Below, one piece after another: positions 12,557-58,212 of a stretch of DNA of 58,212 nucleotides. The position numbers were made by a program, and so were the translations under genes. Origin of the DNA: a virus (taxonomy: Duplodnaviria; Caudoviricetes); the IMG/VR virus record IMGVR_UViG_3300030103_003525, positions 1 to 58,212 of that record. One strand, written 5' to 3'. The notes beneath the pieces were generated by a model that saw only the letters and a list, made by a program, of their open reading frames with translations, searched no databases and had not been told where the DNA came from. Positions within the stretch are counted from its first letter, which is position 1, and the number at the start of each line of letters is the position of its first letter.

Positions 12557-13092
12557 AGTTTTTTATCATCAATTTGCATTTCATAGTCGGAGTTTTTCGT
12601 AAACCAAACGACATCTCCTATTTTTAACCCTAGCTCTTTTATCTTATCACTAGCGTACATAATTTTTCCTTTATAGTTTACCTCTTCTTCAAAAGATACA
12701 AGTTCAAGGATATCACTTTTTAGTTTAGGCTCTGGCTTTATAGGATCTAAAAATACCCAATCATCTAAAGCTATTATTTCATTGGTGTCTTTTTTCTTCA
12801 CAATATAAGATTGTGTAGAGTGACCACCGTCTGGACTGTAGTTAACCTGATACAAGTCATTCTTCTCATCAATAACTTGAGGTGTTATTACAACGTGATG
12901 ATGAAAGTAAAGTGTGTCTCCAACAGCTACCTGCGTTTTGTACTTCTCCGGGATGCCAACGACTTCACCTTCCATAACCCTATGCTCAAACTCATTGAAC
13001 TTAGTTTCGATATATATCTCAACGTCTCCTATCTTTTTAGTCTCGTTCACTTTCTTAGGAACGTAAACAACAAAATTACTTAGTGGTCTCAT
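12514..13092 (-). CDS. Tandem GroES-like co-chaperonin
   Basis: Two GroES-like repeats: MRPLSNFVVY..GEVVGIP..VAVGDTLYF and IIALDDWVFLDP..GKIMYA..LKIGDVVWF. Confidence 0.65.
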   Translation of the reverse strand: MRPLSNFVVYVPKKVNETKKIGDVEIYIETKFNEFEHRVMEGEVVGIPEKYKTQVAVGDTLYFHHHVVITPQVIDEKNDLYQVNYSPDGGHSTQSYIVKKKDTNEIIALDDWVFLDPIKPEPKLKSDILELVSFEEEVNYKGKIMYASDKIKELGLKIGDVVWFTKNSDYEMQIDDKKLWRVLIQNLTIVEK

Positions 13093-15995: not shown

Positions 15996-16311
15996 CTGCG
16001 TAGAAACAAGCCTTTACTTTATAATGGGTAGGTGTCATATTACCAGCTTTAACAGCGGCCTTTACAGCTTTAGTAGCCTCCTCTAATGTGTCAGCCTTTA
16101 CCATAACCATCTGCTCATTGCTCATATAACCTCCTTTGTCATACTCCATATAGCCACCGCCACCATACTCAACCATTCCTCCGCCTTCATATTCTTTAGA
16201 CAGCATCTTCTTTGCCATCTCTCTTTGCTTAGGATCTTCAAGTAAAGCTTTTAGCATACCACCAGAAGCATACTCCATCATTCCACCTTTTCCGTACTTC
16301 TTAATCTTCAT
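15985..16311 (-). CDS. Hypothetical protein with YxxGG repeats
   Basis: YGKGG, YASGG, YEGGG, YGGGG and YDKGG in 108 aa. Confidence 0.7.
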   Translation of the reverse strand: MKIKKYGKGGMMEYASGGMLKALLEDPKQREMAKKMLSKEYEGGGMVEYGGGGYMEYDKGGYMSNEQMVMVKADTLEEATKAVKAAVKAGNMTPTHYKVKACFYADED

Positions 16312-16771
16312 AATTCAAATATTTAGTTTTTCCGTTTTTCTTTACTGCCTTAAGTATTTGTTTTCTGTTCTTACCATAGTTATATGATACGTGTACCCAA
16401 TCGGGGCATTCCTCCGAACCGAATTCCCAAATTAATTGATCAAACACAAAATTATCTTTTATATTATGAAATACTTCAGCATTCTTATAATCACACTCCC
16501 CTGTGCATATATCTATATCAGCCGCAGCTCCCTTGATAGCACAATGCTGTGAGGTAGCACTTCCACCTATTGCAGTATTCAAAGCAGGACTTCTATATCC
16601 ACTTGTAATAACAATAGGCCCCATAAGATCTCTTAAGGGTTGTAATACTTTTTCACATAGTTCTGCTAGGTTTTCTATTTGCTGTTCATCGGGTGTATTA
16701 TCTATGTCTCTACGCTTAGCCGTAACAGACCTAGTCATCTCCTTTAATGTAAAGTTTTTACTTAGCTTCAT
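16301..16771 (-). CDS. Peptidase M15A family endolysin
   Basis: ITSGYRS..LN.AIGG...SQH...AADI...WVHVS zinc-binding motifs. Confidence 0.9.
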   Translation of the reverse strand: MKLSKNFTLKEMTRSVTAKRRDIDNTPDEQQIENLAELCEKVLQPLRDLMGPIVITSGYRSPALNTAIGGSATSQHCAIKGAAADIDICTGECDYKNAEVFHNIKDNFVFDQLIWEFGSEECPDWVHVSYNYGKNRKQILKAVKKNGKTKYLNYED

Positions 16772-39419: not shown

Positions 39420-42400
39420 TTATTGTCCTAATTGGTTAGCCAGATTAGATTTAGCATATACGGTGTTTACAGCGTATAATTCTATCTCTGAAGTAGAACT
39501 ATTGGTTAGTTTAATTTTTGCATAGTAATCACGAATCTGATCTCCCTCAACGGATCCCGTTGCTATTGCTACAACCTCGTCACCGTTAGCTAATCCAGAA
39601 ACAGTTGAAGCGCAAGTTATTTTAGTTCCTGTAGGTACAGAAGATATAGTGTTACTTATAGAAACAAGAGTTGTTCCACTTATTTTATAAAGAGCTGCAC
39701 CCATTGGGAATGTTATGTAGCTTATATCACTACTAAAAGTTATATCAGCACCTGTAATATTACTAACAGCTCCTAAAGCAAATACTTCTGAACTACCAGA
39801 TAATGCTGTTATTGTTGAACCTCCAGTATTAGCAGAATCATCTCTTGGTATTGAAGCATACCAGTTACGTTCACGCTTATCATAAGTTGCTTCTAATATA
39901 TTAGCACTCTGATCTGTGTTTGTAATTAAAGTAGTCCAAGCATTTGTGCCTTCTAAGCTTATAGATTCAAAGGTCTTAACCATAGATGCGTTGGCAGCTG
40001 AAATAATTTCTACAACAGAATTATATGCTGTTCCATAATACGTGTTTCTATTTGCATCAGCACTATGTTTCCACATAGCTCCAGCTTTAAATGTATATAA
40101 TAGAGAGTCTATGCTTATAATGTTTTCTGGATCAAAAGAATATAAAGTAGTCCACACATTAGAACCAGCATCGTATCCTGCGGTGAATCCACTAGCATCA
40201 TTTGAAGCAGTTCCAAAGGCAGCTGTAAAGTTTCCGCAATCTCCGGGAAAAGTAAATGTTCCTTTAGATACATTAATTAATACAGGAATAAAGAAGTTAT
40301 ATGATATATCTGTCGCTATCCCGTATAAAGCTGTTGGCGTAGTACCTATATACTCTTCTCCTAAAACAATTGGCTGACCATCTACAAGCCTGTCTAAGTA
40401 GATAACAGCATTTATGCTATCATCAAAATTATCACACACATTATCAAAAGCTCTAAACTCAGTGTCTGCTTTAAATATTTGATTGTCATCATAAATGATT
40501 GATCCAAATACAGTATTACCAGCACCGTTTGTTTGAAGATCAAATGAATAGCTACTGCCACCAGATTCAGAAATAGTAACTGTGTTTTTGTCTAAAGATT
40601 CAGTAGATATAATGTATTCATTGTTTTCTACGTCAAATCCACCAATAACTTTCTTTACAGAAGCATTCTGAACTAGGTTCTCAAACTTAGTCCAAAAGAA
40701 CGTATCCATCTTAGCATCACTAATAGCTGTTATACCGTCTCTTGATATTCTTATTACTGCACCATTTCTTATATCAGCAAAGTAAATACGGCCCTCATTA
40801 ACTGCTACAGACTCTGGATTATTATTTACACCATACTCTCCTTGATAATAAGAAGGATTGCCTACAACATTGGTTGAAACAGCTAAGTTCTTTTCGCCTG
40901 AAGAATACTCAACAAGATTTCTATTTACAGGAAATATTCCACACTTCTTATCTTGAATAAACACAACGCTGTCATCTCTATTTACCATATATCTAACAGA
41001 TCCGTGTATATAGTTTAAGTCATAAAAAGGTGCTAGTGTTGGATTGAATGAAGATAAACCAAGAGTGTTAACGTCAATCAAAAATGCGTCAGAATACGTA
41101 ACAGATCCTGTTCTATAAACTTGTTTAGCATCAGGAAGCACAGAGAAAGGTCTACCTATTGATGTATTTTTAGAAGTAAAGAAATCAGAAACAGCTGTTG
41201 ATTCTACATACCTTATTAAGAAATTAAAAGACTTTGCATTTTTTCCGTATCTAAGCTGTCTTAACCTAAAATAAATGTCTCCTTGATCAATGTTAATTAC
41301 TGTTTCTGAAGAGTTCTGTAAGTTAACAGTATATGTTTGTCCTTGAACAAATAAACCAAACTGAGGAACAGCTTGTATATAATAGTTATATATACCGCTA
41401 ACAAAAGGTATTGCGTTTGCAACAACAAATTCATTACCAGAAGAGTCTTTCATAACATCTCCGGGATACATAATATTATTACTTCTAAATTCAAGAGGTG
41501 TAACTGGATTATTAACACAAAGTATAGAATACTGAGGTATAGAAGTTCTGTCCCCTATCATTGATCCATTAGCTCCAACAGAATAAGACTTACCTACTTC
41601 GTAATAAACTTCGTCCTCTGCTTTTTTTCTTACTTTATATAGTTCAATAATAGCTTTATCATCCCAATTATCTGTTCCAGCAATAATGCTATCCTTATCC
41701 CATCCAGCTTGAGACTTATCTTTTAATACTAAAAATGATCCTGTTGTATTATATGTAGAATTATCACTTGTTGAATCTAATATTGGATTTGTAGCTGGAT
41801 CATCAGTAAAATCTTCATATCCAACAACATCAAATATTATATCAGCAGGAAATGTAGAACCTCCGTGAGAGACAACACGAAGTTTGTCGCCTTCTGTGAA
41901 AGAGTATTCTATATTAGCCCCTTTAGATTCTTTATATGAATCATTCTTGCTTTCTAATGATCTAAATGATAAATAGAAAATATCATTATTTTGAGATATG
42001 GCATTTGCTTTTAATGCTGATATATTACTAGCAAAGTAACCTCGTATTACGCTATACTCTAGCTTTTGATCTATTGTTCCTCCTCCATATACAGGACTCC
42101 ATCTTTTAGCCCAACTAGGAGCTTTGCTTTTGATACGCATAATAACATTAGCAACTCCTTTATTTTGCCTGTTACCGTACCAGTCTATAGTCACATTCCC
42201 AGCCTCTTGAACAGCAGAAGATCTATTTCTATCATCGTAAAAAACAACACCTAAAGAGTGGGTTGAACCTGACTTAAAACCTTTATGACCTTTTGTATCT
42301 CCCGTTACAAAAGTAGAAGACTCAATAACCTCGCTGTCAAAAGATGTTGAAGACCACTGTAATGATGATCCATTTCCAAAAGGAAGTATATCATCGGCAG

Positions 42401-44231
42401 AAGAAGACCAAAAAACAAAGTTATACCCTTTATAAGATATGCCATCACCTAAAATTAAAGGTGTTGATGAAGCAAAATTAACAGGATTATTGAAATCTTC
42501 TGCGCCACCTAAAGCGGTTGGTTTATATATATTTTTAATGTTTAATGTTGAAGATAAAAGATCTGCTCTAAAAGTTAAAATGTTTCCATTTAATCCAACT
42601 TTTGTTAGTCGAACAGAACCAAGTCCGTTAAATGTAAAAAATCTACGAATAGGAATTGGAGAAATTGTATTTCCTCCAAATTTAGTTCTTAATGCAGAAA
42701 TTGTATTTAAAGGCTGACTAAGCGTAAATGAAGGAGTTCCTGCTGCGTAATTTGAATTATTGTTTTTACAATCAAATACAACTTGATAAACTTTAGCTAT
42801 TGCAGAATTTATAAGGACTTCTAGTCCTTGAATAGTAGTCCCAGCTGGAAATTTTAAAGATTCAGTAACTCCTATTGGTGCAGTATCTACAGTAATTGTG
42901 TCTTCTAAAATTCCTCCAGCATTAGCTTGCAGTAAATCATCATCAAGTTCAACCCAATGAACAAACGCACCGTTTTGATTATTTAAAGTTCCAATTTGAA
43001 GTCTATCAAGAACAAATGAAAAGTCTATATTTAATAAAGAATCTTGAGGAACAGGAAAAGTTATTGAGCTTAAATCAAAAGTGAGAGTTTTTATCGCCCC
43101 ATTAGGATTAGCTCCATTATCTACTGTTATTGTTTGTATTCCGGGTCTTAAATAATAATTAGGAAGTAAAGCAATGTCGTTATCTTGATTTGCATAGCCT
43201 TCTAAATAATTACCTAAAAATAAACGACTTCCACTAATTGTCTGTGATTGCGCTTTTAAAGGAACAGCATCATATAATTTGTCTGAGTCCGTTGAAGGTA
43301 TGAAGTTATATAGCTGATTATTTTTAAAGTCAGTAAATAGTGTTGACGATGTAGATAATGAAGGATTGTTTATTTCATCAATCACAAATAGAGGCCCTTT
43401 ATTTCCCTCACGAGCCAAAACTTCAATGCGCTTAACGTCCGCCACACTAGTCTCTACAGAAACCCTTATTGTATTATTCTTTAGTTTCTCTGCATCAGTT
43501 ATTAAACCGTCCTTTAATTGCTGTTCACTAACTGCTAGTTCAGTATACTTAGATATAGCAGAAACTTCTCCGTCAAGATAAAAATAGCGATACGCAAACT
43601 GATATGTATTTTCAAATACGTTGTTTTCTTTTAAAGAAGAGTCTGTTATGAACTCAAAAGTAGGTGGGTCTAATGGTGGTTTTTTAGCTAATGTTATAAA
43701 TTCTAACTTCTCTGCATCAGATCCGCTGTTTAATACTGAAGAATAGCCCCCTCTTATCGCTCTAGAGACGTTTAATTTCTTTGGTGATGAAAGACCATCG
43801 GTAAAGTATAAAAGGCTGTCTTTGTCTAAGTTTCTAATAATGTCTGCTTGGACTAAAGTGTCTTTCTGAAATGATAAAACAGAATCTCTATACACCAACT
43901 CAGCCTTACCAACAGCAGTAGTAAATCTATATATGCTATGCTTTTGAGTTGAGTTCCAAACAAAGAAGATAACAATGCCATCTTGAAGGTCAGCTACAGA
44001 ACCAATAACCTTGTTATCTCCCGTAGGAAGAGCGTGTGTCTTAGCTTGCCAGTTATTGCCCGCTGCAAAAGAAACAGCCCCATTACCATATGCGTTCTTA
44101 ACAATACCTCCATCCCCATCTTGATCTGCTGATATACGCACATTTAGCGCATCAGTCATCTCTATGTTTTTGACTAAACGAGCATCGTCCTCTTTATTAA
44201 GGTATCTGGGAATTATCTTATCTATAGCCAT
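39420..44231 (-). CDS. Tail stabilisation (nozzle/muzzle-like) protein
   Basis: 1603 aa; LNKEDDARLV..DALNVRI, YQFAYRY, RLFLGNY, GEYGVNNNPES, YFADIRNGAVIRISRDGIT.IS, as in crAss-like stabilisation proteins. Confidence 0.75.
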   Translation of the reverse strand: MAIDKIIPRYLNKEDDARLVKNIEMTDALNVRISADQDGDGGIVKNAYGNGAVSFAAGNNWQAKTHALPTGDNKVIGSVADLQDGIVIFFVWNSTQKHSIYRFTTAVGKAELVYRDSVLSFQKDTLVQADIIRNLDKDSLLYFTDGLSSPKKLNVSRAIRGGYSSVLNSGSDAEKLEFITLAKKPPLDPPTFEFITDSSLKENNVFENTYQFAYRYFYLDGEVSAISKYTELAVSEQQLKDGLITDAEKLKNNTIRVSVETSVADVKRIEVLAREGNKGPLFVIDEINNPSLSTSSTLFTDFKNNQLYNFIPSTDSDKLYDAVPLKAQSQTISGSRLFLGNYLEGYANQDNDIALLPNYYLRPGIQTITVDNGANPNGAIKTLTFDLSSITFPVPQDSLLNIDFSFVLDRLQIGTLNNQNGAFVHWVELDDDLLQANAGGILEDTITVDTAPIGVTESLKFPAGTTIQGLEVLINSAIAKVYQVVFDCKNNNSNYAAGTPSFTLSQPLNTISALRTKFGGNTISPIPIRRFFTFNGLGSVRLTKVGLNGNILTFRADLLSSTLNIKNIYKPTALGGAEDFNNPVNFASSTPLILGDGISYKGYNFVFWSSSADDILPFGNGSSLQWSSTSFDSEVIESSTFVTGDTKGHKGFKSGSTHSLGVVFYDDRNRSSAVQEAGNVTIDWYGNRQNKGVANVIMRIKSKAPSWAKRWSPVYGGGTIDQKLEYSVIRGYFASNISALKANAISQNNDIFYLSFRSLESKNDSYKESKGANIEYSFTEGDKLRVVSHGGSTFPADIIFDVVGYEDFTDDPATNPILDSTSDNSTYNTTGSFLVLKDKSQAGWDKDSIIAGTDNWDDKAIIELYKVRKKAEDEVYYEVGKSYSVGANGSMIGDRTSIPQYSILCVNNPVTPLEFRSNNIMYPGDVMKDSSGNEFVVANAIPFVSGIYNYYIQAVPQFGLFVQGQTYTVNLQNSSETVINIDQGDIYFRLRQLRYGKNAKSFNFLIRYVESTAVSDFFTSKNTSIGRPFSVLPDAKQVYRTGSVTYSDAFLIDVNTLGLSSFNPTLAPFYDLNYIHGSVRYMVNRDDSVVFIQDKKCGIFPVNRNLVEYSSGEKNLAVSTNVVGNPSYYQGEYGVNNNPESVAVNEGRIYFADIRNGAVIRISRDGITAISDAKMDTFFWTKFENLVQNASVKKVIGGFDVENNEYIISTESLDKNTVTISESGGSSYSFDLQTNGAGNTVFGSIIYDDNQIFKADTEFRAFDNVCDNFDDSINAVIYLDRLVDGQPIVLGEEYIGTTPTALYGIATDISYNFFIPVLINVSKGTFTFPGDCGNFTAAFGTASNDASGFTAGYDAGSNVWTTLYSFDPENIISIDSLLYTFKAGAMWKHSADANRNTYYGTAYNSVVEIISAANASMVKTFESISLEGTNAWTTLITNTDQSANILEATYDKRERNWYASIPRDDSANTGGSTITALSGSSEVFALGAVSNITGADITFSSDISYITFPMGAALYKISGTTLVSISNTISSVPTGTKITCASTVSGLANGDEVVAIATGSVEGDQIRDYYAKIKLTNSSTSEIELYAVNTVYAKSNLANQLGQ

Positions 44232-49271: not shown

Positions 49272-49357
49272 ATCAAATAAAATTTAAATTACATATATTA
49301 TATGCAAAATTAAATAATATACTTGTGTGTAATCAGACCGTCCTTGTTATAAGCTAG

Positions 49358-49597
49358 TTAACGATGTTTTTTGGTTTTTTTAGCAACTTTTTTTGGTTGC
49401 GGAACATATTGCTTTCCTTTTGCTGTTCCTTTTCTCTTTGCTCTTGATGTCGCTGCATATTCAGCAGAGCTGAGTTCTTTTATTGCTGCCGCTGGAAGAT
49501 ATCTCTCTCCAGTCTCTGATGACTTCTTTCCAGACTTAGTCCTCCAGTTTTGCTTAGTCCAGTCTCTTAATGATTGCTGTGGATTCTTTCGTGCCAT
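49358..49597 (-). CDS. Small basic protein, DUF5872-like C-terminal half
   Basis: QSLRDWTKQNWRTKSG..ERYLP. Confidence 0.65.
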   Translation of the reverse strand: MARKNPQQSLRDWTKQNWRTKSGKKSSETGERYLPAAAIKELSSAEYAATSRAKRKGTAKGKQYVPQPKKVAKKTKKHR

Positions 49598-49815
49598 TAG
49601 CTTTTGTATCCGCCACCAGCGGCTTTATATGCTTTAGCTAACATCTGTGCCTTTCTCGCAGACCATTGTCCGGGTCTTCCACCTTTAGATCCAGCCATTA
49701 TTCTTTTGAATATTCTTTTTCTCATACCGGGCTTAGTGTAATTGCCAGCCTCGTTTACCCTAGACTTAACCTTACCTCCACCTTTGTATTCTTTCTTAAG
49801 TACTTTCATTACCAC
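49597..49815 (-). CDS. Small basic protein, DUF5872-like N-terminal half
   Basis: NYTKPGMRKR..GGRPGQWSARKAQMLAKAYKAAGGGY. Confidence 0.7.
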   Translation of the reverse strand: MVMKVLKKEYKGGGKVKSRVNEAGNYTKPGMRKRIFKRIMAGSKGGRPGQWSARKAQMLAKAYKAAGGGYKS

Positions 49816-50099
49816 TTAACTTTATTAGCCCAATAAGCAGCAGACATTTTGCCTTTGGCTATGTTTCTTCTATGACGAGCTTTAAAAGACTTTCTTTTAG
49901 CTCTCATTCTATCTGACTCTCCAGCTTTAGGCTTACCAGCAGTACTAGCTCCCTGCTCTCCGAATCTAATTAATCTTATTTTGTCTCCCACTTTAGCAAG
50001 AACAATATGAGACTTTTTAGGATGAGAAGGTGTCCTCTTAGGTTTGTTAACCCCAGATAGACCATACCTTTTAAGCATATTCTTTACTCTATTATCCAT
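49809..50099 (-). CDS. Small basic phage protein
   Basis: KKSHIVLAK..IRFGEQG..RKSFKARH..AYWANKVKW; TAATTTTG lies 4 nt before the ATG. Confidence 0.75.
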   Translation of the reverse strand: MDNRVKNMLKRYGLSGVNKPKRTPSHPKKSHIVLAKVGDKIRLIRFGEQGASTAGKPKAGESDRMRAKRKSFKARHRRNIAKGKMSAAYWANKVKW

Positions 50100-50128
50100 A
50101 CTTCAAAATTAATGTATTTATCAATACG

Positions 50129-50662
50129 TTATTTATACTTATTAAAGTAGTCAAGTATTTCTTTTTCAAGCCTTGCGTCCATCAGATAATTACCATCATA
50201 CTCTACACTAGTGAATGTACCATCTCCTTCTTCTATTATCTCAATGACATAATCTATTTCATCATAAGTTATTGAGAAAGACTCTGACCTTTTTAAAAGA
50301 CTAATATTCCTAGATGATTGAAATCTATCTTGTATTGTGATATCGCTTATATCTGGGAGGTTATCTATTCTAGTTATTGATTTAGCATAACTTGTTCCTG
50401 TAGTATCTATAAAGTATACATTAGACAATGCTGTCATTAAGTAAAATTGCTGTTTACTACTTAACCCTCCATCTTTAAAGTTACCAGTAAACTTAACGAC
50501 AGGAAGTTTCATAACCTCTCTCTGCACTTCTCTATCTAGCCTTTTGTAGTCTATAAACGAAGTAACCTCGCTAACCTCCATAATATCTATATTACAAGGT
50601 ATCATTACTAATTTATAGTAAAGACTTGTGGTCATTTTATTTTTAGCTACATACTGCATCAT
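50129..50662 (-). CDS. Hypothetical protein, last gene of the two-component operon
   Basis: 177 aa; ATGA overlap with the upstream gene. Confidence 0.7.
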   Translation of the reverse strand: MMQYVAKNKMTTSLYYKLVMIPCNIDIMEVSEVTSFIDYKRLDREVQREVMKLPVVKFTGNFKDGGLSSKQQFYLMTALSNVYFIDTTGTSYAKSITRIDNLPDISDITIQDRFQSSRNISLLKRSESFSITYDEIDYVIEIIEEGDGTFTSVEYDGNYLMDARLEKEILDYFNKYK

Positions 50663-51231
50663 TCATCTTTTTCAGTAGCATATTTAACGCCCATAATAGT
50701 TCCAACTATAGAAAATGCATTGGTTAACAGTATACCTAACATATTAGACCAAGTAGAACCAATTATTTGCGTATCGGTATTTGTGAATAAGGCAAAGACA
50801 TACATAGCAGTAGTTACGACACCAACACTTACAATAACAACTAAAGCAACTTTTACAATAGTTCCTATAAGCTCTGTCTGCGTTTTCTTCTGCATAACCT
50901 CTAGATCTTCTAGGGCTTTGTCCTTGCCTTTCTCAGCAGCGTCCTTTAACTTCTCAGATTCTTTTAATGTTAACTGAAGATCTTTAAGAAGTCTTTCGTT
51001 CTCCTCTGCGGCAACAGCTAACTTTTTATTTTGCTGTTGAACTTGCTTGGTTATAGTAAGCCTTTTCTTGCGAGAGCTACTATCTTTATTTATACAGTTC
51101 TTTAAATAGTCTTCAAATACAGTATCTCCAGATTTAGCTTTTAATACTTTAAGAATATTACCCTCAAGAAAAATGCGTTTGCTTTTTGCTAAAGCTAACA
51201 GCTCATCTCTTAATTTTTTATCTGGATCCAT
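50659..51231 (-). CDS. Coiled-coil protein with two C-terminal TM helices
   Basis: Charged coiled coil, then IVKVALVVIVSVGVVTTAMYVFALF and MLGILLTNAFSIVGTIMGV. Confidence 0.75.
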   Translation of the reverse strand: MDPDKKLRDELLALAKSKRIFLEGNILKVLKAKSGDTVFEDYLKNCINKDSSSRKKRLTITKQVQQQNKKLAVAAEENERLLKDLQLTLKESEKLKDAAEKGKDKALEDLEVMQKKTQTELIGTIVKVALVVIVSVGVVTTAMYVFALFTNTDTQIIGSTWSNMLGILLTNAFSIVGTIMGVKYATEKDE

Positions 51232-51242
51232 AATATTTTACA

Positions 51243-51680
51243 TTATCTGTAAACCTTAAAGGAATTCTTTTTTGATTTATAACCTTCGTAGTCTTTTCTG
51301 AATTCTTCAAGTCTTGGCTCTATGTCATCAGACTTTATAATCCAAAACTGCGCTCCAGCCTCTTTTGCTTTATCAATCTCTTGATGGTCATCAGAAGATG
51401 ATATTATACCTACAACACAACCATTGCCATAGTCGTAGTTAATCTTTCTTATCATCTCAATGCCGTCAAAGCTAGACCCTATAATATTAAGGTCTACAAA
51501 AACACACTCAGGTCGTTCCTCATTTAAATCATCAGGAAACCATTCCTTGAATTTAGCATCAGCTTCATCAGAAGAATTTAAAGCTTCTAAGGATAGAGTT
51601 ATATCCAATATGTTACAGGCATCTTCAAATACCAAGTGAAATAGATCCTCATCATCGATGAGCATAATAGAATTTATCAT
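51243..51680 (-). CDS. Single-domain response regulator (CheY-like receiver)
   Basis: IMLIDDE acidic pocket, phosphoacceptor Asp in VFVDLNI, DGIEM, IISSS, AGA..WIIK. Confidence 0.9.
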   Translation of the reverse strand: MINSIMLIDDEDLFHLVFEDACNILDITLSLEALNSSDEADAKFKEWFPDDLNEERPECVFVDLNIIGSSFDGIEMIRKINYDYGNGCVVGIISSSDDHQEIDKAKEAGAQFWIIKSDDIEPRLEEFRKDYEGYKSKKNSFKVYR

Positions 51681-51690
51681 TTTTTTAGTT

Positions 51691-52929
51691 TTATATAGTA
51701 ATACACATTTTTGTTCCGTTACTTAATTTCTCCGCCCTCACTTCGAAACCGTGTTCTTTCAAAATAGCGATACATATGTTCAGACCTAAGCCCGTACCGC
51801 CTTCCGATTGACCCTCTTTCCTAGTGTAAGGTTTTGATAAATAAAGGAACTCTTCTTGACTCATACCTCTCCCATTATCTTGGACGTATATGCATCGTTT
51901 ATTATTGTCTATACTCATAAAAACTTTAACGATCTTCTTTGGACTGTCATTATACTTTAGTCCGTTTCTAATTAAATTATCAATTGCTGTACAAAACAAT
52001 GGCTCATTTACTTCTACTGTTGGCAATATGCCAATATCTACTTGCTTTATATATGATGTTGTTGCTAAATAACTCTTTAGTGAGTCACTTAGATTATGCG
52101 GAGCCATATCCAATTGCGCATCCTCTTTTACTAGGTTAGTAAATTCTTTAACTCCCTTAAATACTTTCTGCGTATGCTTAAGACCTTCTTCTAACATCTT
52201 AAGGGGAGCTTGTATTTTTAGCTGTTTTATCTTCTCTTCTGACAGCCTTCTTCTTAGCGAGGTTAACCCTCTAGGCATATAGGTATTAATACCCGAATGC
52301 ATATCGTGACGTAATATCTTAGCAGCGTGTTCCAAGTAAGTGTTTTTCTGTAACGCCTCTTGCTCTGCTAAGTGTTGAGATGTAATGTCTGTAGCTATTT
52401 TTAAAACAGTACTGTACTTACCATTCTCGTCTTTAATAGGTGTGTAGTGTCCAATTAAGAACTTTTTAGATTTGTTTTTTGCGTATCTCTCAAACTCTCC
52501 TTTTACAAGTTTTCCCTTTTCAAGAGATCTCCAAAAGTCTGTGTATGCATCGCTATATGCAAATTTCTTATCTAAGAATATTCTATGCGTTTTACCTACA
52601 AGCTCAGAGGCAGTATACCCCATAGCCTTACAGAAGGATTTATTTACATAGATAATCTTACCATCAGATTTAAACCTTACAATTAAGCTGGATTCATCTA
52701 TAGCCTTTAGCTGTAGGTCTACGTTATCTTCTTTGGTTCTAGTTACTCTTATAAAGTCATAAACGACATAAGCAAAGAAAGGACTAAATAATATTATACA
52801 ACCGTAAGCTACCTCTGCTAGTATGTAGCTTGGATCAAAGACCCTAAATACTACTAGAGTTTGTATGATGAAAAAAACAAACATTATAGCACTAGAAATG
52901 CCCAAACATATCTTGGCTAACTTACTCAT
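51691..52929 (-). CDS. Membrane-anchored PAS-domain sensor histidine kinase
   Basis: Two N-terminal TM helices; PAS (IIYVNKSFCKAMGY..ELVGK..FW..GEF..YTPI..ATDIT); H-box ILRHDM; N-box NLIRNGLKYN; G1 DNGRGM; G2 GTGLGL. Confidence 0.93.
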   Translation of the reverse strand: MSKLAKICLGISSAIMFVFFIIQTLVVFRVFDPSYILAEVAYGCIILFSPFFAYVVYDFIRVTRTKEDNVDLQLKAIDESSLIVRFKSDGKIIYVNKSFCKAMGYTASELVGKTHRIFLDKKFAYSDAYTDFWRSLEKGKLVKGEFERYAKNKSKKFLIGHYTPIKDENGKYSTVLKIATDITSQHLAEQEALQKNTYLEHAAKILRHDMHSGINTYMPRGLTSLRRRLSEEKIKQLKIQAPLKMLEEGLKHTQKVFKGVKEFTNLVKEDAQLDMAPHNLSDSLKSYLATTSYIKQVDIGILPTVEVNEPLFCTAIDNLIRNGLKYNDSPKKIVKVFMSIDNNKRCIYVQDNGRGMSQEEFLYLSKPYTRKEGQSEGGTGLGLNICIAILKEHGFEVRAEKLSNGTKMCITI

Positions 52930-52937
52930 ATATTATT

Positions 52938-53090
52938 TCATTTTCCTTTTCTTAAAAGATACCACCTATGTAGTGTGTAACCAATAGATGCAGATAAGAG
53001 CAGTATTTTTAATGTTATCTCAATAGTTGACATACTAACACCCATTGCTGTGGTGTTTAGAAAAAACAGTTTGAGATCTTCTTGATTCAT
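52938..53090 (-). CDS. Small membrane protein, 50 aa, holin-like (not in ORF track)
   Basis: MNQEDLKLFFLNTTAMGVSMSTIEITLKILLLSASIGYTLHRWYLLRKGK; ATGA overlap with the upstream gene; basic C-terminus. Confidence 0.65.
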   Translation of the reverse strand: MNQEDLKLFFLNTTAMGVSMSTIEITLKILLLSASIGYTLHRWYLLRKGK

Positions 53091-53311
53091 TTCTTTGCAA
53101 ACTTCTCTATAGCTGTTCCGAAAAACATAGCAATAGTAATGTACTCTACAGCCTCAACAAGTTCCTTACTTGGGGCTATGTCGATCTGAGAAAAGGAGTT
53201 TGCTATAAGTGTACCAAATAATACAATTGCGCCAATGACTCCAATGACTCGCTTACTACTCACGCTATCAGCGTTTCCGTTAGCTAGAAGTTTATTTATC
53301 CAATTTTTCAT
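53087..53311 (-). CDS. Two-TM holin-like protein
   Basis: SSKRVIGVIGAIVLFGTLIA and YITIAMFFGTAIEKFAKK. Confidence 0.6.
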   Translation of the reverse strand: MKNWINKLLANGNADSVSSKRVIGVIGAIVLFGTLIANSFSQIDIAPSKELVEAVEYITIAMFFGTAIEKFAKK

Positions 53312-53315
53312 ATAG

Positions 53316-53323
53316 CAAAGTTA
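53316..53323 (-). promoter_or_regulatory. -7 element TAACTTTG at the head of the holin-like/two-component operon
   Basis: Minus strand reads TAACTTTG-CTAT-ATG. Confidence 0.65.
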
Positions 53324-53327
53324 ATGC

Positions 53328-53353
53328 AAAAGAAAAGCCCCTCTAGGGGGCTT
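53328..53353 (-). terminator. Intrinsic terminator
   Basis: AAGCCCC-ctaga-GGGGCTT-TTCTTTT on the minus strand. Confidence 0.75.
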
Positions 53354-53376
53354 ATCCAACCTTTGATATGAAGCTG

Positions 53377-53625
53377 TTACTTAACCTCCTCAGCTTCTAC
53401 AGGAGTAAATTCACCAGTGTCTAGATTGACAGTTCCATCACCGTGTTCTTCCAAGATAACCTTACGTGCTTCAGCCATCTTTTCTTCTAGTTCTGTATGA
53501 GAAGATATAAGGGTAGACTTTCTTGCTTCAAGCAAAGAAATAGCACCAAGTTCTTGTTGTATTTTATTCATATCAGTCTGAATAGACTTGATAGATTCTA
53601 AAGATTCTTTTTTTATTTTTTCCAT
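53377..53625 (-). CDS. Coiled-coil hypothetical protein
   Basis: 82 aa ending HGDGTVNLDTGEF. Confidence 0.75.
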   Translation of the reverse strand: MEKIKKESLESIKSIQTDMNKIQQELGAISLLEARKSTLISSHTELEEKMAEARKVILEEHGDGTVNLDTGEFTPVEAEEVK

Positions 53626-53665
53626 TGTAATGAATTTTTATATTGCAAATATAGTTTATATCAAG

Positions 53666-54019
53666 TTAACTTTCAATAGTTAAAGTTACAACTTTTGGAG
53701 ATACCTTCTCTTCTATATCAGAAGCTATGTTTGCTTCTATCCTAGTAACCTCATCTGCTCCTAGAGCGGTTTTACACCAAGCTGTTACTTCAGTATTAGT
53801 TAGTTTATCAACAGCAATAAACTTTGAAGGATCTATTGATTCTGTTGAAATAGATATTGTACCAATACAGCTAGACATATATTCGACATCAGAAACAGTC
53901 TTAGTTCCTTGAACTGACCAATGTATGTTAAATACAACATCAGTTAATTCAGTTCCTGAAGCATCAAATTTTGTATAGCAGTCTAAGGTTCTGCAATTCC
54001 AAGTATAAGTAACAGCCAT
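53666..54019 (-). CDS. Tail fibre-associated small protein
   Basis: 117 aa (YTWN..VVFNIHW..LT..V..W) in the fibre module. Confidence 0.6.
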   Translation of the reverse strand: MAVTYTWNCRTLDCYTKFDASGTELTDVVFNIHWSVQGTKTVSDVEYMSSCIGTISISTESIDPSKFIAVDKLTNTEVTAWCKTALGADEVTRIEANIASDIEEKVSPKVVTLTIES

Positions 54020-54046
54020 AATAATTTTTTTACAAAGTTAATGAAT

Positions 54047-55123
54047 TTATGCGTGTTGAGTTGATGAAGCTGGAGTTCCAACTTGATTAGATAGATTGTA
54101 AGCACCATTCGTATCTAGCCCTAAGTCTCCCGCATCTTCAAACCTAAATAAAACATTAGTGTAAGTAAAACCATAATTGCTTTCATCTTGCGGTGCGCCA
54201 CTATTATATATTTCGTTAACCTCTGTTGAGCTTAAGCAGTTTTCATAAAAATATGTAACCTCATCCCAACAAAGTCCAGATCCAAGTTCTGATGAATATG
54301 AACCTCCAACAACTAAATATTGTTGATCCCAAGTGATATTATTTAATGTGTGAGTCCCGCCACTTGTTCTTGTTAAAGCTGTTCCATTCCAATAAACATT
54401 TAATCTAGAAGCTCCTGTTGCAGAAGAATCATATGTAATATCAAGCCGCATAAAGTTGTTTGCGTTAACATTTCCAAGAGTTAAAGGAATAGATATATTA
54501 TTGGCATATAAAGCTGTACCAACACCCCATTGTCTATTAGTAGCTATTCCCGTTGTGCTACTGTTAGCTGAATTATTTAACTCATATACCCAAGTTGTTG
54601 TGTTAGGGCCTCCGGGCGGAGATGACTCGTCTATCATTTGAAAATACAAAGTAGTTTTACCATCTGAAGTGTTAAATATATTTAAATTCCAACCACCTCC
54701 TACTGTACCGCCTCCTTGATTATTATAATTATGAAAAGCAGACATATAATAGTAAGTTGCACCTTCCGATCTAGGTAGTAACCAAGCACCATAACTAAAC
54801 CCTCCAGAGTCATCGTTAAATTTTGGCTGTTCTTCAGATACGCTACTCCAACCATCTCCGTAAAGCATAGATCCAGCATTTCCATCATCGGGAGGAAAAA
54901 AACAAGACTTAGTAGAATAACTACAAACAGCATTATGGTTATAATCATACCACTCAGATATCTTAGCGGGATTAGCACCATTTGGATAAGAAGGGCTACA
55001 GGTGTTTATAGTCCCGTAGTCTCCATTCTCAGCTTTGTCTAACTGTATAGCTGCTGTTCTAGAACGGCCTAGCTCTTCGTTTATGTCTCCTAGTGTTATC
55101 AGTCCTGATGCGGGTAGTGTCAT
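54047..55123 (-). CDS. Tail-tip adhesin-like protein with a LamG/concanavalin-like domain
   Basis: N-terminal MTLPASGLITLGDINEELG; ITYD..LNVYWNG..DEV..LSSTEVNEIYNSG LamG-like pattern; coupled to the fibre gene. Confidence 0.6.
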   Translation of the reverse strand: MTLPASGLITLGDINEELGRSRTAAIQLDKAENGDYGTINTCSPSYPNGANPAKISEWYDYNHNAVCSYSTKSCFFPPDDGNAGSMLYGDGWSSVSEEQPKFNDDSGGFSYGAWLLPRSEGATYYYMSAFHNYNNQGGGTVGGGWNLNIFNTSDGKTTLYFQMIDESSPPGGPNTTTWVYELNNSANSSTTGIATNRQWGVGTALYANNISIPLTLGNVNANNFMRLDITYDSSATGASRLNVYWNGTALTRTSGGTHTLNNITWDQQYLVVGGSYSSELGSGLCWDEVTYFYENCLSSTEVNEIYNSGAPQDESNYGFTYTNVLFRFEDAGDLGLDTNGAYNLSNQVGTPASSTQHA

Positions 55124-58100
55124 TTAGATAGTTTTTTGACTTGTTCTTTTAATTCATCAATCTGCTCTTGCTGTTCTTTCATTCCTTCTATAAGTAGAGC
55201 TACCATATTCTGATAAGAAACAGAGTACATACCCTTATCGTCTTCGTGAACAACTTCGGGTACGTGAGGTAATACCTCTTGAGCTATGACACCCATAAAT
55301 CTCTTCTCTGAGTCTAAGTCTGTTCTTTGGTAAGTTACCCCACGAATAGCTTTTATCTTCTCTACAGGATCAGATATGCTAATTATATTATCTTTTACTC
55401 TAGCATCTGAAAATGCAGTAATGTCAGCAGAGGCATATATAGATACATTAGAAACAGCAGAGTTTACGTGTAGAGGGTATGAAGGAGTAGATCCGTTAGT
55501 AATACCAATTCCTACTTTAGCAGATGTTCCTAAATTAATAGTATCAGCACCTTGATTTGTTTGAACATTATCTACTATAGTAGGATCTGATATGTTAGTA
55601 CCTGTAGGGCTTGTATTTATATAAATTGCACCTTTAGTTGTAGATAAAGAATTAGTTGTAAGGTCTCTGTTAGTAGTAATTTTAGCTTCACATTGAGAAT
55701 AAAATCTAACTTCTGCATAAATAGGAAGATATCTAATGTCTCCACTTACTGTTGTCAATGGCCCTACCGTTAATTGAAAACTTTCAGTTTGAGAACCACC
55801 AGAAATTTCAACAAGATCCATATCTGCATAGTTGTTATATCCCGCTACAAGCTGATACTTTTTAGAAACACCTTGACCAAAATACGGTTCCATCAATTCT
55901 ATTTCTAAAACACCTGTATTTCCCCAATCGTTATAATCAAAAAATACTCTAGCTATTTCATATCTTTTTGCTTGAGTAGACTGTCCTGTATGAAAAGTAT
56001 CTGTAATTACTGTTGTGTAATTTTTTAAACTAAACTGATTATTAAAAACAGGGCCAACAGTGTTACCTTCTCCAGCTGATACTACCATAGAACCAGCAAC
56101 TGTTAATTTACCATTAGTAGTTAAGGACATTGCTCCTTGAGAACCGCTATGGCTAGTATCGCCCCACCAAAAACCTCTATTTGAATTATCATTCATTTGG
56201 AATGTCATAGCATACTCTGCACCAGAATTTCCAATACTACCAAAGGTGAAACCATTAGTCATACCTATAGCGTAAGCTGATGAACTCCAAACTCTAAGTT
56301 TATCTCTTGATAGAGCAGCATTACCACCAATGAATGCACCGTTAATTACATCAATGCTACCAGTCTCGCCACTAATTCTACAAAGCTCGCTAATTGTTCC
56401 AGTTCCTCCACCGTGACGACCTATCACAAAATCAGCACCTGAAGTGTTATTACTGTTAGAATCTAAGTTGACATAAACCGCACCGTAAGAATTAATTCTA
56501 ATATCGTCAGCTTCACCACCAGTATTACTTCTGCTGCTAATGCTATGGTTTGCGTTGCTATCTTCATAAAAGGTAATAAAACTTCCTCTGCTCATATTAA
56601 TGTCACCATTAGAAGAGCCAAAGTTTATATTTCCGTTCATAGAAAGGTTATCATCTATTGTTGTAGCACCATTAAAGTAAGCTGTACCTTGATTATAGAA
56701 ATCAAAACTTGCGTGAACACTAGTTATACCTACTGCAAATTTTGAAGTCACATTAGCATTACCACTAACAGTTAATTTTTCAGCGGGAGTAGAAGTGCCA
56801 ATTCCAACATTTAAACCATATGCCGTTAGAACATTGTGAGAACCGCCATTATACAAGTGAGTTCGCAAGTGAACTCTTTGAGAGTAATTTCCAGCATATG
56901 GAGATGCGTGGTTATATGACTCTATTACCAAACCAGAATCACCACTGCTTCCAAATGATCCATTATCTAGTCTACGAAGACCAACATAAGTGCTTCCTGC
57001 TTTTGTCCAGTTTCCTAATGAAATGTTACCAGATACATCAAGTTTTTGTAGCGGATTATTATTACCAATTCCCATATTACCCGAACTTCCATTTCCTGTA
57101 ACTACAACATTACCGTTTTGTTGTAATTCAAGAACGTGAGAAGCAACAGAATTATAAGCTGGGGTTGAAGCGGCTGGATAAAACTGTAAATTATATGAAG
57201 TGCCAGAGTTTCTCGCTGATATGTCCCATCTAGCTGCCCCGTTTACATCAAAAAATAATTCAGAAGGATTATCACCAATACTTCGTAAACGAGTTGTTGA
57301 TCTTCCAGTGCTTGCTTGGTTTATAAATCCACTAGTAGCATCTGTACCATAGCTACCATTTGAATAAACTAAGTGTAATTTTGGAACAGGAATAGTAGTC
57401 CCTGTACCTATTCCTACGTTACCACCTCCCGTTATAGTCATTAAGTTATCTGAAGCCCAATGACCTAAAATTAAGAGGTTATTGTTTGAACCAGCTGTAC
57501 CTGAATATCTATATCCAATATATGCAGAATTTTTTGTGCTACCAGCCTTACCAAAAACAAGTATATTGCTTTCACCAGATGTTAGATTAGGAGTAAAAGC
57601 ATTAATAGTATGATTAAACGTTATAGATGATGTGTTTATTACACTTATAGTGGGTGCTGTTGAAGTACCTCCACCAGAAATAGTAAGTTTTCCATTAGGA
57701 GAACCAGTCCCAATTGCAACGTTACCGTTTGATCCTTCTATGAATAATCTTGAAGAAGCTGTTGGATTTGAAGTTATACTGCTAGTGTTAGCGGCCAAAA
57801 ATAAATCTCCGTTATAATCTGAAAATATACCTGACCTTACATCACCTAAACCACCATTTACAGCATCAGACCTTGTACTAAAACCAATACCGTGAGGATC
57901 AAAACTAGTATTATTAGGTCTGTGAACTAATAGTGGTACGGATGCAGATTGATTTACTTGTAAAGCAACATTAGGAGTTGAAGTTCCAATTCCTACTTTT
58001 CCAGTTCCTTCATTAAGAATAAGATTACCATTTCCTCCATTACCACTGTTTATATATGAATTTGTTTCATCTACCCAAATTCTAATAGACCTGCCACCAT

Positions 58101-58212
58101 TTGCGGCTAGGATACCTATACCTTTTTCATCAGCGTTAGAAGTTTGGTTTACTTGCAAAGCACCAAATGAATTTGCATTAGCAGAACTACCTACTTGAAC
58201 ATTTCCGCTTAC
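55120..58212 (-). CDS. Tail fibre C-terminal part with peptidase S74 intramolecular chaperone (frame open to the right edge)
   Basis: GNVGIGT repeats; SDARVKDNI..IRGVTY..GVIAQEV..PEVV..VSYQNMVALLIEGMKE. Confidence 0.9.
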   Translation of the reverse strand, partial: VSGNVQVGSSANANSFGALQVNQTSNADEKGIGILAANGGRSIRIWVDETNSYINSGNGGNGNLILNEGTGKVGIGTSTPNVALQVNQSASVPLLVHRPNNTSFDPHGIGFSTRSDAVNGGLGDVRSGIFSDYNGDLFLAANTSSITSNPTASSRLFIEGSNGNVAIGTGSPNGKLTISGGGTSTAPTISVINTSSITFNHTINAFTPNLTSGESNILVFGKAGSTKNSAYIGYRYSGTAGSNNNLLILGHWASDNLMTITGGGNVGIGTGTTIPVPKLHLVYSNGSYGTDATSGFINQASTGRSTTRLRSIGDNPSELFFDVNGAARWDISARNSGTSYNLQFYPAASTPAYNSVASHVLELQQNGNVVVTGNGSSGNMGIGNNNPLQKLDVSGNISLGNWTKAGSTYVGLRRLDNGSFGSSGDSGLVIESYNHASPYAGNYSQRVHLRTHLYNGGSHNVLTAYGLNVGIGTSTPAEKLTVSGNANVTSKFAVGITSVHASFDFYNQGTAYFNGATTIDDNLSMNGNINFGSSNGDINMSRGSFITFYEDSNANHSISSRSNTGGEADDIRINSYGAVYVNLDSNSNNTSGADFVIGRHGGGTGTISELCRISGETGSIDVINGAFIGGNAALSRDKLRVWSSSAYAIGMTNGFTFGSIGNSGAEYAMTFQMNDNSNRGFWWGDTSHSGSQGAMSLTTNGKLTVAGSMVVSAGEGNTVGPVFNNQFSLKNYTTVITDTFHTGQSTQAKRYEIARVFFDYNDWGNTGVLEIELMEPYFGQGVSKKYQLVAGYNNYADMDLVEISGGSQTESFQLTVGPLTTVSGDIRYLPIYAEVRFYSQCEAKITTNRDLTTNSLSTTKGAIYINTSPTGTNISDPTIVDNVQTNQGADTINLGTSAKVGIGITNGSTPSYPLHVNSAVSNVSIYASADITAFSDARVKDNIISISDPVEKIKAIRGVTYQRTDLDSEKRFMGVIAQEVLPHVPEVVHEDDKGMYSVSYQNMVALLIEGMKEQQEQIDELKEQVKKLSK
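57905..57996. repeat. 92-bp exact direct repeat, copy 2
   Basis: Identical to 1-92. Confidence 0.95.

Follow-up and report, generated by a model that had tools for sequence, protein, structure and literature searches.

An uncultured marine phage, probably infecting Flavobacteria-type hosts, encodes its own apparently intact sensor histidine kinase, a stand-alone receiver and a membrane hairpin protein that has relatives only in viruses, and we suggest, from comparative sequence evidence alone, that these three proteins form a relay that probably helps to tune the time of host lysis. The phage is represented by IMG/VR record IMGVR_UViG_3300030103_003525, which was analysed over its whole length of 58,212 nucleotides (referred to here as the window). 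The three genes lie in a group of six tightly packed genes on the minus strand. A previous sequence-only reading had described this group as a phage two-component system in an operon with holin-like membrane genes, and its observation is confirmed. The features discussed below are as follows.

53335..53353 (-), terminator-like GC-rich hairpin (7 pairs, 5 of them G-C, loop of 5) followed by a T-run (tail TTCTTTTG), which closes the upstream 82-aa gene
53316..53323 (-), TAACTTTG, a Bacteroidota-type -7 promoter-like motif 4 nt before the ATG of the first gene
53087..53311 (-), 74-aa protein with two hydrophobic segments (tm74), a candidate holin-like protein
52938..53090 (-), 50-aa peptide with one moderately hydrophobic segment and a basic tail (tm50), just upstream of the kinase
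51691..52929 (-), 412-aa histidine kinase with two TM helices separated by a minimal loop, one cytoplasmic PAS domain, a divergent dimerisation/His region (H208) and an ATPase domain
51243..51680 (-), 145-aa stand-alone receiver (single-domain response regulator), the most conserved gene of the set
50659..51231 (-), 190-aa effector candidate (CC2TM) with a small N-terminal domain (about residues 1-80), one long helix running through a coiled coil into TM1, a 4-residue turn, TM2 and a short charged tail
50129..50662 (-), 177-aa soluble alpha/beta protein (p177) with no assigned fold or function
50104..50111 (-), TAATTTTG, the next promoter-like motif, 4 nt before the ATG of the following gene, which encodes a 96-aa basic protein
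16301..16771 (-), the M15-family endolysin of the phage, far from the six genes and with no membrane protein gene next to it

Two of the junctions between the six genes overlap by 4 nt (53087-53090 and 50659-50662), and the other gaps are 8-11 nt. The motif TAnnTTTG, to which the two promoter-like sequences belong, is not enriched in the window as a whole (74 matches against 77 expected). However, it is strongly enriched just upstream of gene starts, with 14 occurrences against 1.4 in shuffled sequences and a shuffle maximum of 7.

The window is a complete virus record (CheckV completeness 100%) with terminase, virion and tail-fibre PHROGs. Of 105 records that match its terminase, 91 are phages named for Flavobacterium, Cellulophaga, Bacteroides, Tenacibaculum, Azobacteroides or Maribacter. 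Together with the promoter motifs, these relatives point to hosts in the Bacteroidota.

The possibility that the locus is an assembly chimera or cellular contamination inside a viral contig is all but excluded. A separate metagenome contig (L140) has the same six genes and the same flanks at 82-100% protein identity, with the gene order kept at about 90% identity. Contigs from other public runs bridge both junctions; pieces from runs X5 and X6 cover 49343-50830 and 53187-53974 with 0 differing letters, and pieces from run X8 cover 49882-52122 and 52687-54500 with 22-35 differing letters. One contig in runs X5 and X6 does join 49322 to 54477, skipping 5154 bases, but only 21 letters lie on the shorter side. 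The GC content is level across the region (0.33-0.40), and the relatives of the locus are viral. Chromosomal closest homologues without phage synteny, or a chimeric insert in the coverage, had been named in advance as grounds for rejecting the sequence-only reading, and neither was found; close homologues are overwhelmingly viral and syntenic.

The kinase matches the Pfam models PAS_9 (47.6 bits) and HATPase_c (51.6 bits against a cut-off of 26.4). Residues H208-D209, N318/N322, D351-x-G353-x-G355, F361 and G378-x-G380-L-G382 are invariant in nine kinases, and they correspond to the H, N, G1, F and G2 boxes of histidine kinases. The ATPase domain aligns to those of CpxA, QseC and EnvZ. No HisKA model matched the His region at E<=0.1; the invariant H208-D209 lies in a fully conserved stretch 110 residues before the N box, and its role as the phospho-acceptor is inferred from this spacing. 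The receiver scores 31.3 bits against Response_reg, just above the cut-off of 30.2, and this is its only Pfam match, so that it has no output domain. Its D9, D10, D63, S94 and K116 are invariant in 34 receivers, which is the CheY-type pentad, and its profile matches the solved regulator 3ilh_A (E 1.7e-6), with D9-D10 and D63 at the matching positions.

Hydropathy analysis gives two TM segments in the kinase, about 8 residues apart, two in the 190-aa protein, a strong plus a weaker segment in the 74-aa protein and one moderate segment in the 50-aa peptide. In an AlphaFold2 model of the 190-aa protein (mean pLDDT 81), predicted helices span residues 37-150 and 155-188, so that a single predicted helix runs from residue 37 into TM1, and the hairpin is nearly invariant among relatives. 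The model of the 177-aa protein also has a mean pLDDT of 81, but structural searches with it gave no clear match (best Z 5.0).

The kinase, receiver and hairpin genes are not a one-off. When a 64%-identical kinase was used as the query, 572 of 599 pattern matches in IMG/VR and 528 of 595 in metagenomes encoded relatives, so that relatives occur in at least 572 IMG/VR contigs. Of 115 non-redundant loci, 81 have at least 2.6 kb downstream of the kinase, and all 81 carry the receiver and the hairpin gene in that order. The other genes are less constant. The 177-aa gene follows in 40 of the 81 loci; the tm50 family precedes the kinase in 17 of 115 loci, whereas a different membrane protein of 62-66 aa (c3) holds that place in 56 of 115; and the 74-aa family is rarer. 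Therefore, the conserved unit is three genes rather than the six of the sequence-only reading. Nor is the pair a rarity among uncultured marine phages, although that reading called such pairs unusual in tailed phages. These neighbor counts rest on clusters built with naive ORF calls, and the loci come from the best 80 of each scan rather than from a census.

The set appears to be restricted to viruses. Only four hits, at about 50% identity, were obtained from about 185,000 species genomes. In the 401 genomes of the phylum of one genome (G001), in a search accompanied by positive controls, the hairpin protein was found in none and the receiver reached E<=1e-20 in one. Atlas clusters are 100% viral where taxa are known. 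On the other hand, the set is absent from 50,697 deposited phage records, no GenBank phage record has a close match, no cultured phage in GenBank carries it, and the nearest cultured relatives by terminase show no match to the kinase, the hairpin protein or the 74-aa protein. The module is therefore dispensable for that phage type.

This absence, and the presence of the module in at least four different genomic contexts, would also fit an accessory "moron" that reprograms host physiology, in which the receiver would bind a host target, as CheY-type proteins do, and the position next to lysis genes would reflect only a permissive insertion site. The receiver is the most conserved gene (76-90% identity where the kinase has 51-69%, and 85% mean column identity), which would suit a conserved host partner. 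However, we consider this reading unlikely. The hairpin gene follows the receiver in 81 of 81 loci, the hairpin occurs without a receiver only where a sensor domain replaces its N-terminal domain, and the N-terminal domain follows the same receiver family again in another locus, with a different output. Together these observations tie the receiver to the N-terminal domain rather than to a host protein.

Related phages often keep the three genes near their lysis genes. A Phage_holin_4_1 holin (PF05105; 35.5 bits in related loci) or one of three unrelated types of endolysin lies within three genes in 53 of the 115 loci, and in 31 of the 65 loci with full flanks; the other 34 of these 65 have no recognized lysis gene within three genes. 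Regions next to lysis cassettes are common sites for accessory genes, and therefore adjacency alone is weak evidence. In the window itself the six genes are not in the lysis cassette. The M15 endolysin (Peptidase_M15_3, 61.4 bits; phrog_894 endolysin, E 2.2e-38) lies about 34 kb away, none of its neighbors has a TM segment, and no ORF of the window joined the Phage_holin_4_1 cluster in an all-against-all BLAST comparison.

The description of the 74-aa protein as holin-like rests only on its topology and on the position of its relatives. No Pfam or PHROG holin family matches it or any of 24 relatives, although a missing match does not exclude a new holin family. By hhalign it is probably related to an 82-aa 2-TM family (c8; probability 88.8%, E 2.5e-6 over 71 columns), and an endolysin or holin lies within two genes for 10 of 18 tm74-family genes and 36 of 56 c8-family genes. 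The hairpin of the 190-aa protein shows no detectable homology to the small 2-TM lysis-cassette family (hhalign probability 0.35%) or to any Pfam holin; one of 35 members gave E 0.0097 to Phage_holin_9, and none of the 35 passed a cut-off.

That the hairpin is an output is indicated by proteins in which it is fused directly to a sensor. Of 957 candidate longer proteins, 806 carry the hairpin, and of the 120 that were listed, 109 have PAS, 10 have GAF and one has a ClpP family in front of it. Residues 81-187 of the window's protein are 69% identical to one such fusion, whose two PAS domains are 39-41% identical to the PAS domain of the kinase. The fusion loci carry no kinase or receiver, and they lie within three genes of lysis genes in 42 of 62 cases, and in 35 of the 50 with full flanks. 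The N-terminal domain, in turn, looks like the input. It is always N-terminal in 129 representative clusters, and in five of the six proteins of 318-349 aa it heads a kinase core that has no membrane part. In one of these loci (L005), a Bacteroidota contig, this second kinase directly follows the same receiver family.

These fusions also bear on the possibility that the 190-aa protein is an accessory input that modulates the kinase within the membrane, like LiaF with LiaS, and that the target of the receiver lies elsewhere. Both proteins are anchored by 2-TM hairpins with conserved polar residues, and three-component systems with a membrane partner occur in bacteria. However, a hairpin found in 806 proteins that have their own sensor and no kinase nearby does not need a kinase to act on, and its N-terminal domain also heads a kinase core without a membrane part, so this reading is quite unlikely.

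It is somewhat less unlikely, but still doubtful, that the relay serves superinfection exclusion or conflict between phages rather than lysis timing. In that case the membrane-embedded kinase would detect a second infection or a membrane disturbance, and the hairpin would block DNA entry or collapse the membrane. The two TM helices of the kinase carry invariant polar and proline residues (Q23, T24 and P50) with almost no outside loop, which is typical of sensing within the membrane, and the output is a membrane protein found only in viruses. The module also moves between phage backbones, as eight context labels need 34 changes on a quick kinase tree where 7 is the minimum, and defense and accessory cassettes behave in this way. 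Nevertheless, the sensor-hairpin fusions use cytoplasmic PAS or GAF sensors and sit inside lysis cassettes in 35 of 50 fully flanked loci, which fits an internal signal and lysis better than sensing of entry.

Taken together, we favor the following explanation, although we consider it only about as likely as not. The six genes would form one late transcription unit of a complete podovirus-like phage of about 58 kb, and its core would be a phage-specific three-part relay. The membrane-anchored kinase would read a cytoplasmic signal through its PAS domain and phosphorylate the receiver on D63, and the phosphorylated receiver would then act by contact on the N-terminal domain of the 190-aa protein. 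That domain would transmit through one continuous coiled-coil helix to the 2-TM hairpin in the inner membrane. The hairpin, which is a lysis-cassette protein in related phages, most likely sets or delays membrane permeabilization as a holin or antiholin partner, so that lysis timing would follow the sensed state of the infected cell. The domain content, the conserved residues, the conservation of the three genes, their viral restriction, their frequent place beside holin and endolysin genes and the modular swaps come directly from the analysis. By contrast, phosphotransfer (supported only by the adjacency of the two genes in 81 of 81 loci), the contact between the receiver and the N-terminal domain, the nature of the signal and any effect on lysis are inferred.

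The interpretation offered by the sequence-only reading, a sensor-gated lysis-timing or superinfection circuit in the late region with redox or energy sensing by the PAS domain, is therefore partly supported. The phage origin, the intact appearance of the kinase and receiver, the lack of an output domain and the nearly absent outside loop of the kinase all hold, and the tie to lysis gains real comparative support from relatives, but redox or energy sensing is only hinted at.

A bolder and more tentative view, which we hold to be somewhat less likely than not, is that many uncultured marine phages of Bacteroidota run their own signaling pathway to decide when to burst the cell. A cytoplasmic PAS or GAF sensor would read the redox, energy or light state of the infected host and would gate the virus-only hairpin either directly, in the fused forms, or through a phage-encoded kinase and receiver, as in the window. 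Some members have even placed a sensory-type rhodopsin gene inside the operon. If so, this would be the first phosphorelay known to end in a lysis protein rather than in transcription or a motor.

Lysis timing sets burst size and phage fitness, yet few ways are known for a phage to adjust it to conditions. A widespread and self-contained pathway of sensor, receiver and membrane effector in marine phages, carried by hundreds of viral contigs and in one-protein versions by hundreds more, would be a new kind of control. It would bear on how viral lysis of abundant marine Flavobacteria-type hosts responds to light, redox or nutrient state, and so on carbon release in the sea. It would also give signaling research a new receiver target, a small N-terminal domain that can drive either a membrane hairpin or a second kinase, and a compact, modular switch.

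We found no paper that describes this module, but phage genomes that carry sensor kinase genes have been reported. Examples are the agr quorum-sensing genes of Clostridium difficile phage phiCDHM1 (PMC3901668) and the histidine kinases beside curli-secretion genes in uncultured pelagiphage-type podoviruses (PMC9599517). The contexts differ, quorum sensing in one and curli secretion in the other, and neither is reported with this receiver or this hairpin protein in the material consulted.

Among sensors, the PAS domain of the kinase matches the solved sensor protein 3ewk_A best (E 2.8e-16, residues 89-191) and the aerotaxis receptor Aer (8dik_A) at E 3.5e-7, both of which are flavin (FAD)-binding PAS proteins. 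Flavin binding by the phage protein would be an inference from this fold similarity alone, and the Cys of LOV photosensors is replaced in its sequence (GKTHRIF).

The LytSR system of Staphylococcus, which controls the holin- and antiholin-like proteins LrgAB/CidAB, also couples a sensor kinase and regulator to holin-like membrane proteins and cell lysis. However, LytR is a DNA-binding regulator that acts on transcription, whereas the phage receiver has no LytTR or other DNA-binding domain, and no similarity to LrgA/B or CidA/B appeared in the Pfam searches.

The classic case of adjustable lysis is phage T4 lysis inhibition, which involves the holin T with the antiholins RI (periplasmic) and RIII (cytoplasmic) (PMC8385771; PMC11413866). 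There, too, a phage sets the time of lysis from a sensed signal by acting on a membrane lysis protein through dedicated regulators. However, T4 has no kinase, receiver or PAS domain, and its signal is superinfection, sensed in the periplasm, whereas the sensors described here are cytoplasmic. No RI or RIII family appeared among the Pfam or PHROG hits of any of the six proteins, so the resemblance is functional only, and the hairpin could be the counterpart of either a holin or an antiholin.

Finally, as in two-component systems with single-domain response regulators, such as CheA-CheY acting on the flagellar switch, a histidine kinase is paired here with a receiver that lacks an output domain and must act by protein contact, and the acidic pocket, Ser/Thr and Lys positions are conserved. 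The phage system differs in that it is encoded by a virus, its kinase is a membrane PAS kinase rather than a CheA type, and its proposed target is a virus-only membrane hairpin protein.

The virus record of 58,212 bases from IMG/VR is rated 100% complete by CheckV and carries a large terminase, virion proteins, a primase-helicase and a tail fibre. A 2528-aa minus-strand ORF (1-7586) runs off the start of the record and the tail-fibre ORF (55120-58212) runs off its end. The record may be a circularly permuted genome cut inside a gene. Two further giant ORFs are present (2630 aa at 28978-36870 and 1603 aa at 39420-44231), and a 192-aa protein (12514-13092) matches a phage GroES co-chaperonin family (phrog_13932, E 5.2e-28).

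Two lines of evidence point to a Bacteroidota host. Of 105 deposited phage records that match the terminase, 91 are named for Flavobacterium, Cellulophaga, Bacteroides, Tenacibaculum, Azobacteroides or Maribacter, and the best named match is to the roughly 60-kb Flavobacterium podophages, at 40% identity. In addition, the motif TAnnTTTG, the -7 element of Bacteroidota promoters, stands within 40 nt upstream of 14 gene starts, against 1.4 expected from shuffled upstream segments (maximum 7 in 1000 shuffles). At four genes (minus strand, gene starts at 7586, 39403, 50099 and 53311) the motif ends exactly 4 nt before the ATG; if it is a -7 element, these transcripts would be leaderless or nearly so. 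A sigma-70 promoter scan was uninformative, with 15 sites against 18 expected, and no RNA data set was listed among the 24 runs.

The sequence-only reading described a phage-encoded two-component system in an operon of six tightly packed genes with holin-like membrane genes, and this observation holds in detail. The six minus-strand ORFs are as described, with 4-nt overlaps or 8-11-nt gaps. The features that bear on the operon are the following:

53353-53335, a GC-rich hairpin with a T-run that closes the preceding gene
53316-53323, TAACTTTG, 4 nt before an ATG
50104-50111, TAATTTTG, 4 nt before an ATG
16301-16771, the M15 endolysin of the phage, with no membrane protein encoded beside it

Pfam finds PAS and HATPase_c in the 412-aa protein and a receiver, just above its cut-off, in the 145-aa protein, but nothing above cut-off in the other four proteins. 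The catalytic and phospho-acceptor positions are invariant across relatives. However, the His region of the kinase matches no HisKA model, and so, the assignment of H208 as the acceptor is an inference. The kinase has two TM helices about 8 residues apart. Of the eight ORFs in the window that have a hydrophobic segment by our scan, three lie in this operon, and the 50-aa peptide falls just under the threshold.

The locus is not a chimera. An independent contig (L140) repeats the gene order with its flanks, and contigs of other public runs bridge both junctions; two of these runs, X5 and X6, gave identical pieces and may be one data set, while a third, X8, is a distinct variant. The pieces from another run, X7, bridged neither junction, which says nothing either way. 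One contig in X5 and X6 joins positions 49322 and 54477, skipping 5154 bases that include the operon, but only 21 letters lie on the shorter side, and it may be a repeat artefact or a variant lacking the region.

The kinase has thousands of close relatives in marine metagenomes (5096 of 8000 scored candidates). Used directly as the query, the kinase found only two IMG/VR loci, because the scan uses exact peptide words. A 64%-identical relative (P0106) opened up the family: at least 572 of 599 pattern matches in IMG/VR and at least 528 of 595 in metagenome contigs encode relatives. In contrast, a collection of about 185,000 species genomes gave four relatives at about 50% identity, and 50,697 deposited phage records gave no close match to the kinase (best 33% over 40% of its length) and no match at all to the hairpin protein (the 190-aa protein) or the 74-aa protein. 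The hairpin protein was found in 0 of 401 genomes sampled from the phylum of the genome G001, and the receiver reached E<=1e-20 in only 1 of 401, which was G001 itself; a control showed that the search can find both. Atlas clusters of the hairpin protein are 100% viral where taxa are known. It had been set out beforehand that chromosomal homologues without phage synteny would count against the reading, but the reverse was found, as the close homologues are viral and syntenic.

To define the conserved unit, ORFs were called in 167 fetched loci, using naive ORF calling, and grouped into single-linkage BLAST clusters. Only the best 80 loci of each scan entered this set. De-duplication by the last 250 kinase residues kept 118 loci; four genome-derived rows were set aside and the window was added, giving 115 viral or metagenomic loci. 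Of these, 81 have at least 2.6 kb beyond the kinase, and all 81 carry the receiver and then the hairpin gene. The hairpin gene is directly adjacent in 56 loci, has one inserted gene before it in 20 and two in five. The 177-aa gene follows in 40 of the 81. The 50-aa gene precedes the kinase in 17 of 115 loci, and an unrelated 62-66-aa membrane protein with a conserved GFCPSKW...CGF motif (cluster c3; for example, L144:2322-2522) directly precedes it in 56 of 115. The receiver is the most conserved gene, with 76-90% identity to that of the window, against 51-69% for the kinase.

In many loci (L130:4131-4628 and 33 others) a 162-169-aa protein with about four TM segments and a C-terminal coiled coil (cluster c6, no Pfam or PHROG family) lies between the receiver and the hairpin gene. 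In six non-redundant loci a short (192-195 aa) rhodopsin-like gene sits at the same place inside the operon:

L135:12170-12751, rhodopsin-like gene
L062:7547-8125, rhodopsin-like gene
L063:6529-7107, rhodopsin-like gene
L064:10165-10746, rhodopsin-like gene
L121:3023-3601, rhodopsin-like gene
L137:12170-12757, rhodopsin-like gene

Pfam gives Bac_rhodopsin 51.5 bits against a cut-off of 24.6. All six keep RYxDW...T...P...Q, a D-T-Q triad with no carboxylate at the donor place, and DxxAK with the Schiff-base lysine. This suggests a sensory-type rhodopsin in phage contigs.

The trio of kinase, receiver and hairpin gene sits in at least four distinct backbones. On a quick kinase tree (SH-aLRT support, midpoint root, long branches for the three genome-derived rows), from which we draw no donor or direction, the eight context labels need 34 changes, where 7 is the minimum and shuffled labels give 61.5. 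Therefore, the cassette moves among phages. In one of the cellular contigs, a 967-kb Bacteroidota contig (L007:6837-9803), the homologous kinase has several near-identical PAS repeats and is split into two ORFs (515 and 425 aa), perhaps through an assembly error in the repeats; the receiver follows, but no hairpin or N-domain gene does.

Recurrent neighbours of the trio are a Phage_holin_4_1 holin (35.5 bits) and three unrelated endolysin types, namely PG_binding_1 plus Amidase_2, Peptidase_M15_3 and a phrog_3000/33083 type. One of these lies within three genes of the trio in 53 of 115 loci, and in 31 of 65 loci with three genes on both sides. By our own rough estimate, which is not a computed control, a phage of 60-150 genes would give roughly 7-18% by chance. 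The 74-aa protein belongs to a small 2-TM family that is probably related to a commoner 82-aa family (hhalign probability 88.8%, E 2.5e-6), and an endolysin or holin lies within two genes for 10 of 18 genes of the first family and 36 of 56 of the second. However, half of the fully flanked loci, and this window, do not have the trio next to lysis genes, and accessory genes often gather beside lysis cassettes. The hairpin matches no holin family. We had considered that the hairpin and the small 2-TM lysis-cassette family might be paralogous, as a holin/antiholin pair would be, but hhalign gave a probability of 0.35% and the idea was dropped. A weak hit of the 190-aa protein to DUF6161 (E 2.5e-4) recurred in only one of 35 relatives and is treated as chance.

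Several patterns suggest that the hairpin is the output and that the receiver feeds it. The last 76 residues of the 190-aa protein recur at 70-78% identity in 806 of 957 candidate longer proteins; among the 120 listed, 109 have PAS domains in front, 10 have GAF and one has a ClpP family. In one such protein the part after the PAS domains is 69% identical to residues 81-187 of the 190-aa protein, and both of its PAS domains are 39-41% identical to the PAS of the kinase. So the same sensor type and the same hairpin are either fused, or split by a kinase and a receiver. The fusion loci (227 of 243 pattern matches in IMG/VR) carry no kinase or receiver within about 6 kb, and they lie within three genes of lysis genes in 42 of 62 cases, and in 35 of 50 with full flanks. 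A further variant has a GAF-bearing kinase, the receiver, the hairpin gene and an endolysin in a row (4 of 4 loci).

The N-terminal 80 residues, which replace the sensors in the split form, were searched against 1.8 billion representatives, and all 129 hits have the domain at their N-terminus. Five of the six hits of 318-349 aa carry a histidine-kinase core after it. In locus L005, a contig of a Bacteroidota bin (L005:5709-9090), a multi-PAS kinase, the same receiver family (64% identical) and such a protein lie in a row, the last being a 349-aa protein in which the N-domain is followed by a HisKA/HATPase_c kinase core; the arrangement looks like a kinase-receiver-kinase cascade. Therefore, the domain travels with this receiver and may drive two different outputs, which is what one expects of the docking site of the receiver. 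A complex prediction of the receiver with residues 1-118 of the 190-aa protein, both as alignments, scored 0.28 and 0.30 against a mark of 0.32 without controls, and is not evidence either way. The AlphaFold2 model of the 190-aa protein (mean pLDDT 81) shows a single helix from residue 37 to 150 that runs through the coiled coil into TM1, a four-residue turn, and TM2. This predicted helix is a plausible rod for passing a change from the N-domain to the membrane. The 177-aa protein also gave a good model (mean pLDDT 81), but Foldseek found no PDB match at E<=0.001, VIA-align gave a best Z of 5.0 over 51 residues and the Atlas gave nothing usable.

The interpretation offered in the sequence-only reading, a sensor-gated lysis-timing or superinfection circuit that may sense host redox or energy state, is partly supported. 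The gene content, the conserved positions, the conservation of the trio and its frequent place beside lysis genes rest on the sequences themselves, whereas phosphotransfer, contact between the receiver and the N-domain, the signal and any effect on lysis are all inferred. The best solved relatives of the PAS domain are 3ewk_A (E 2.8e-16) and the aerotaxis receptor, both flavin binders, but this is only a hint towards redox or energy sensing. We therefore consider lysis timing about as likely as not, and superinfection or conflict functions, host manipulation and an input role for the hairpin protein are the rival explanations.

Phage-borne kinases have been reported in other settings (PMC3901668, PMC9599517). 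No description of this trio or of the sensor-hairpin fusions was found in full-text literature searches or in PMC9599517 and PMC7824862, although these covered neither subscription journals nor supplementary files, and gene tables of viral-metagenome papers may list the genes. The trio would work like a two-component system with a CheY-type receiver and has the features of such systems that were looked at, except for a recognisable HisKA model. In purpose, it would resemble the lysis inhibition of phage T4 (PMC8385771, PMC11413866) and, among bacteria, LytSR with LrgAB, and it shares no parts with either.
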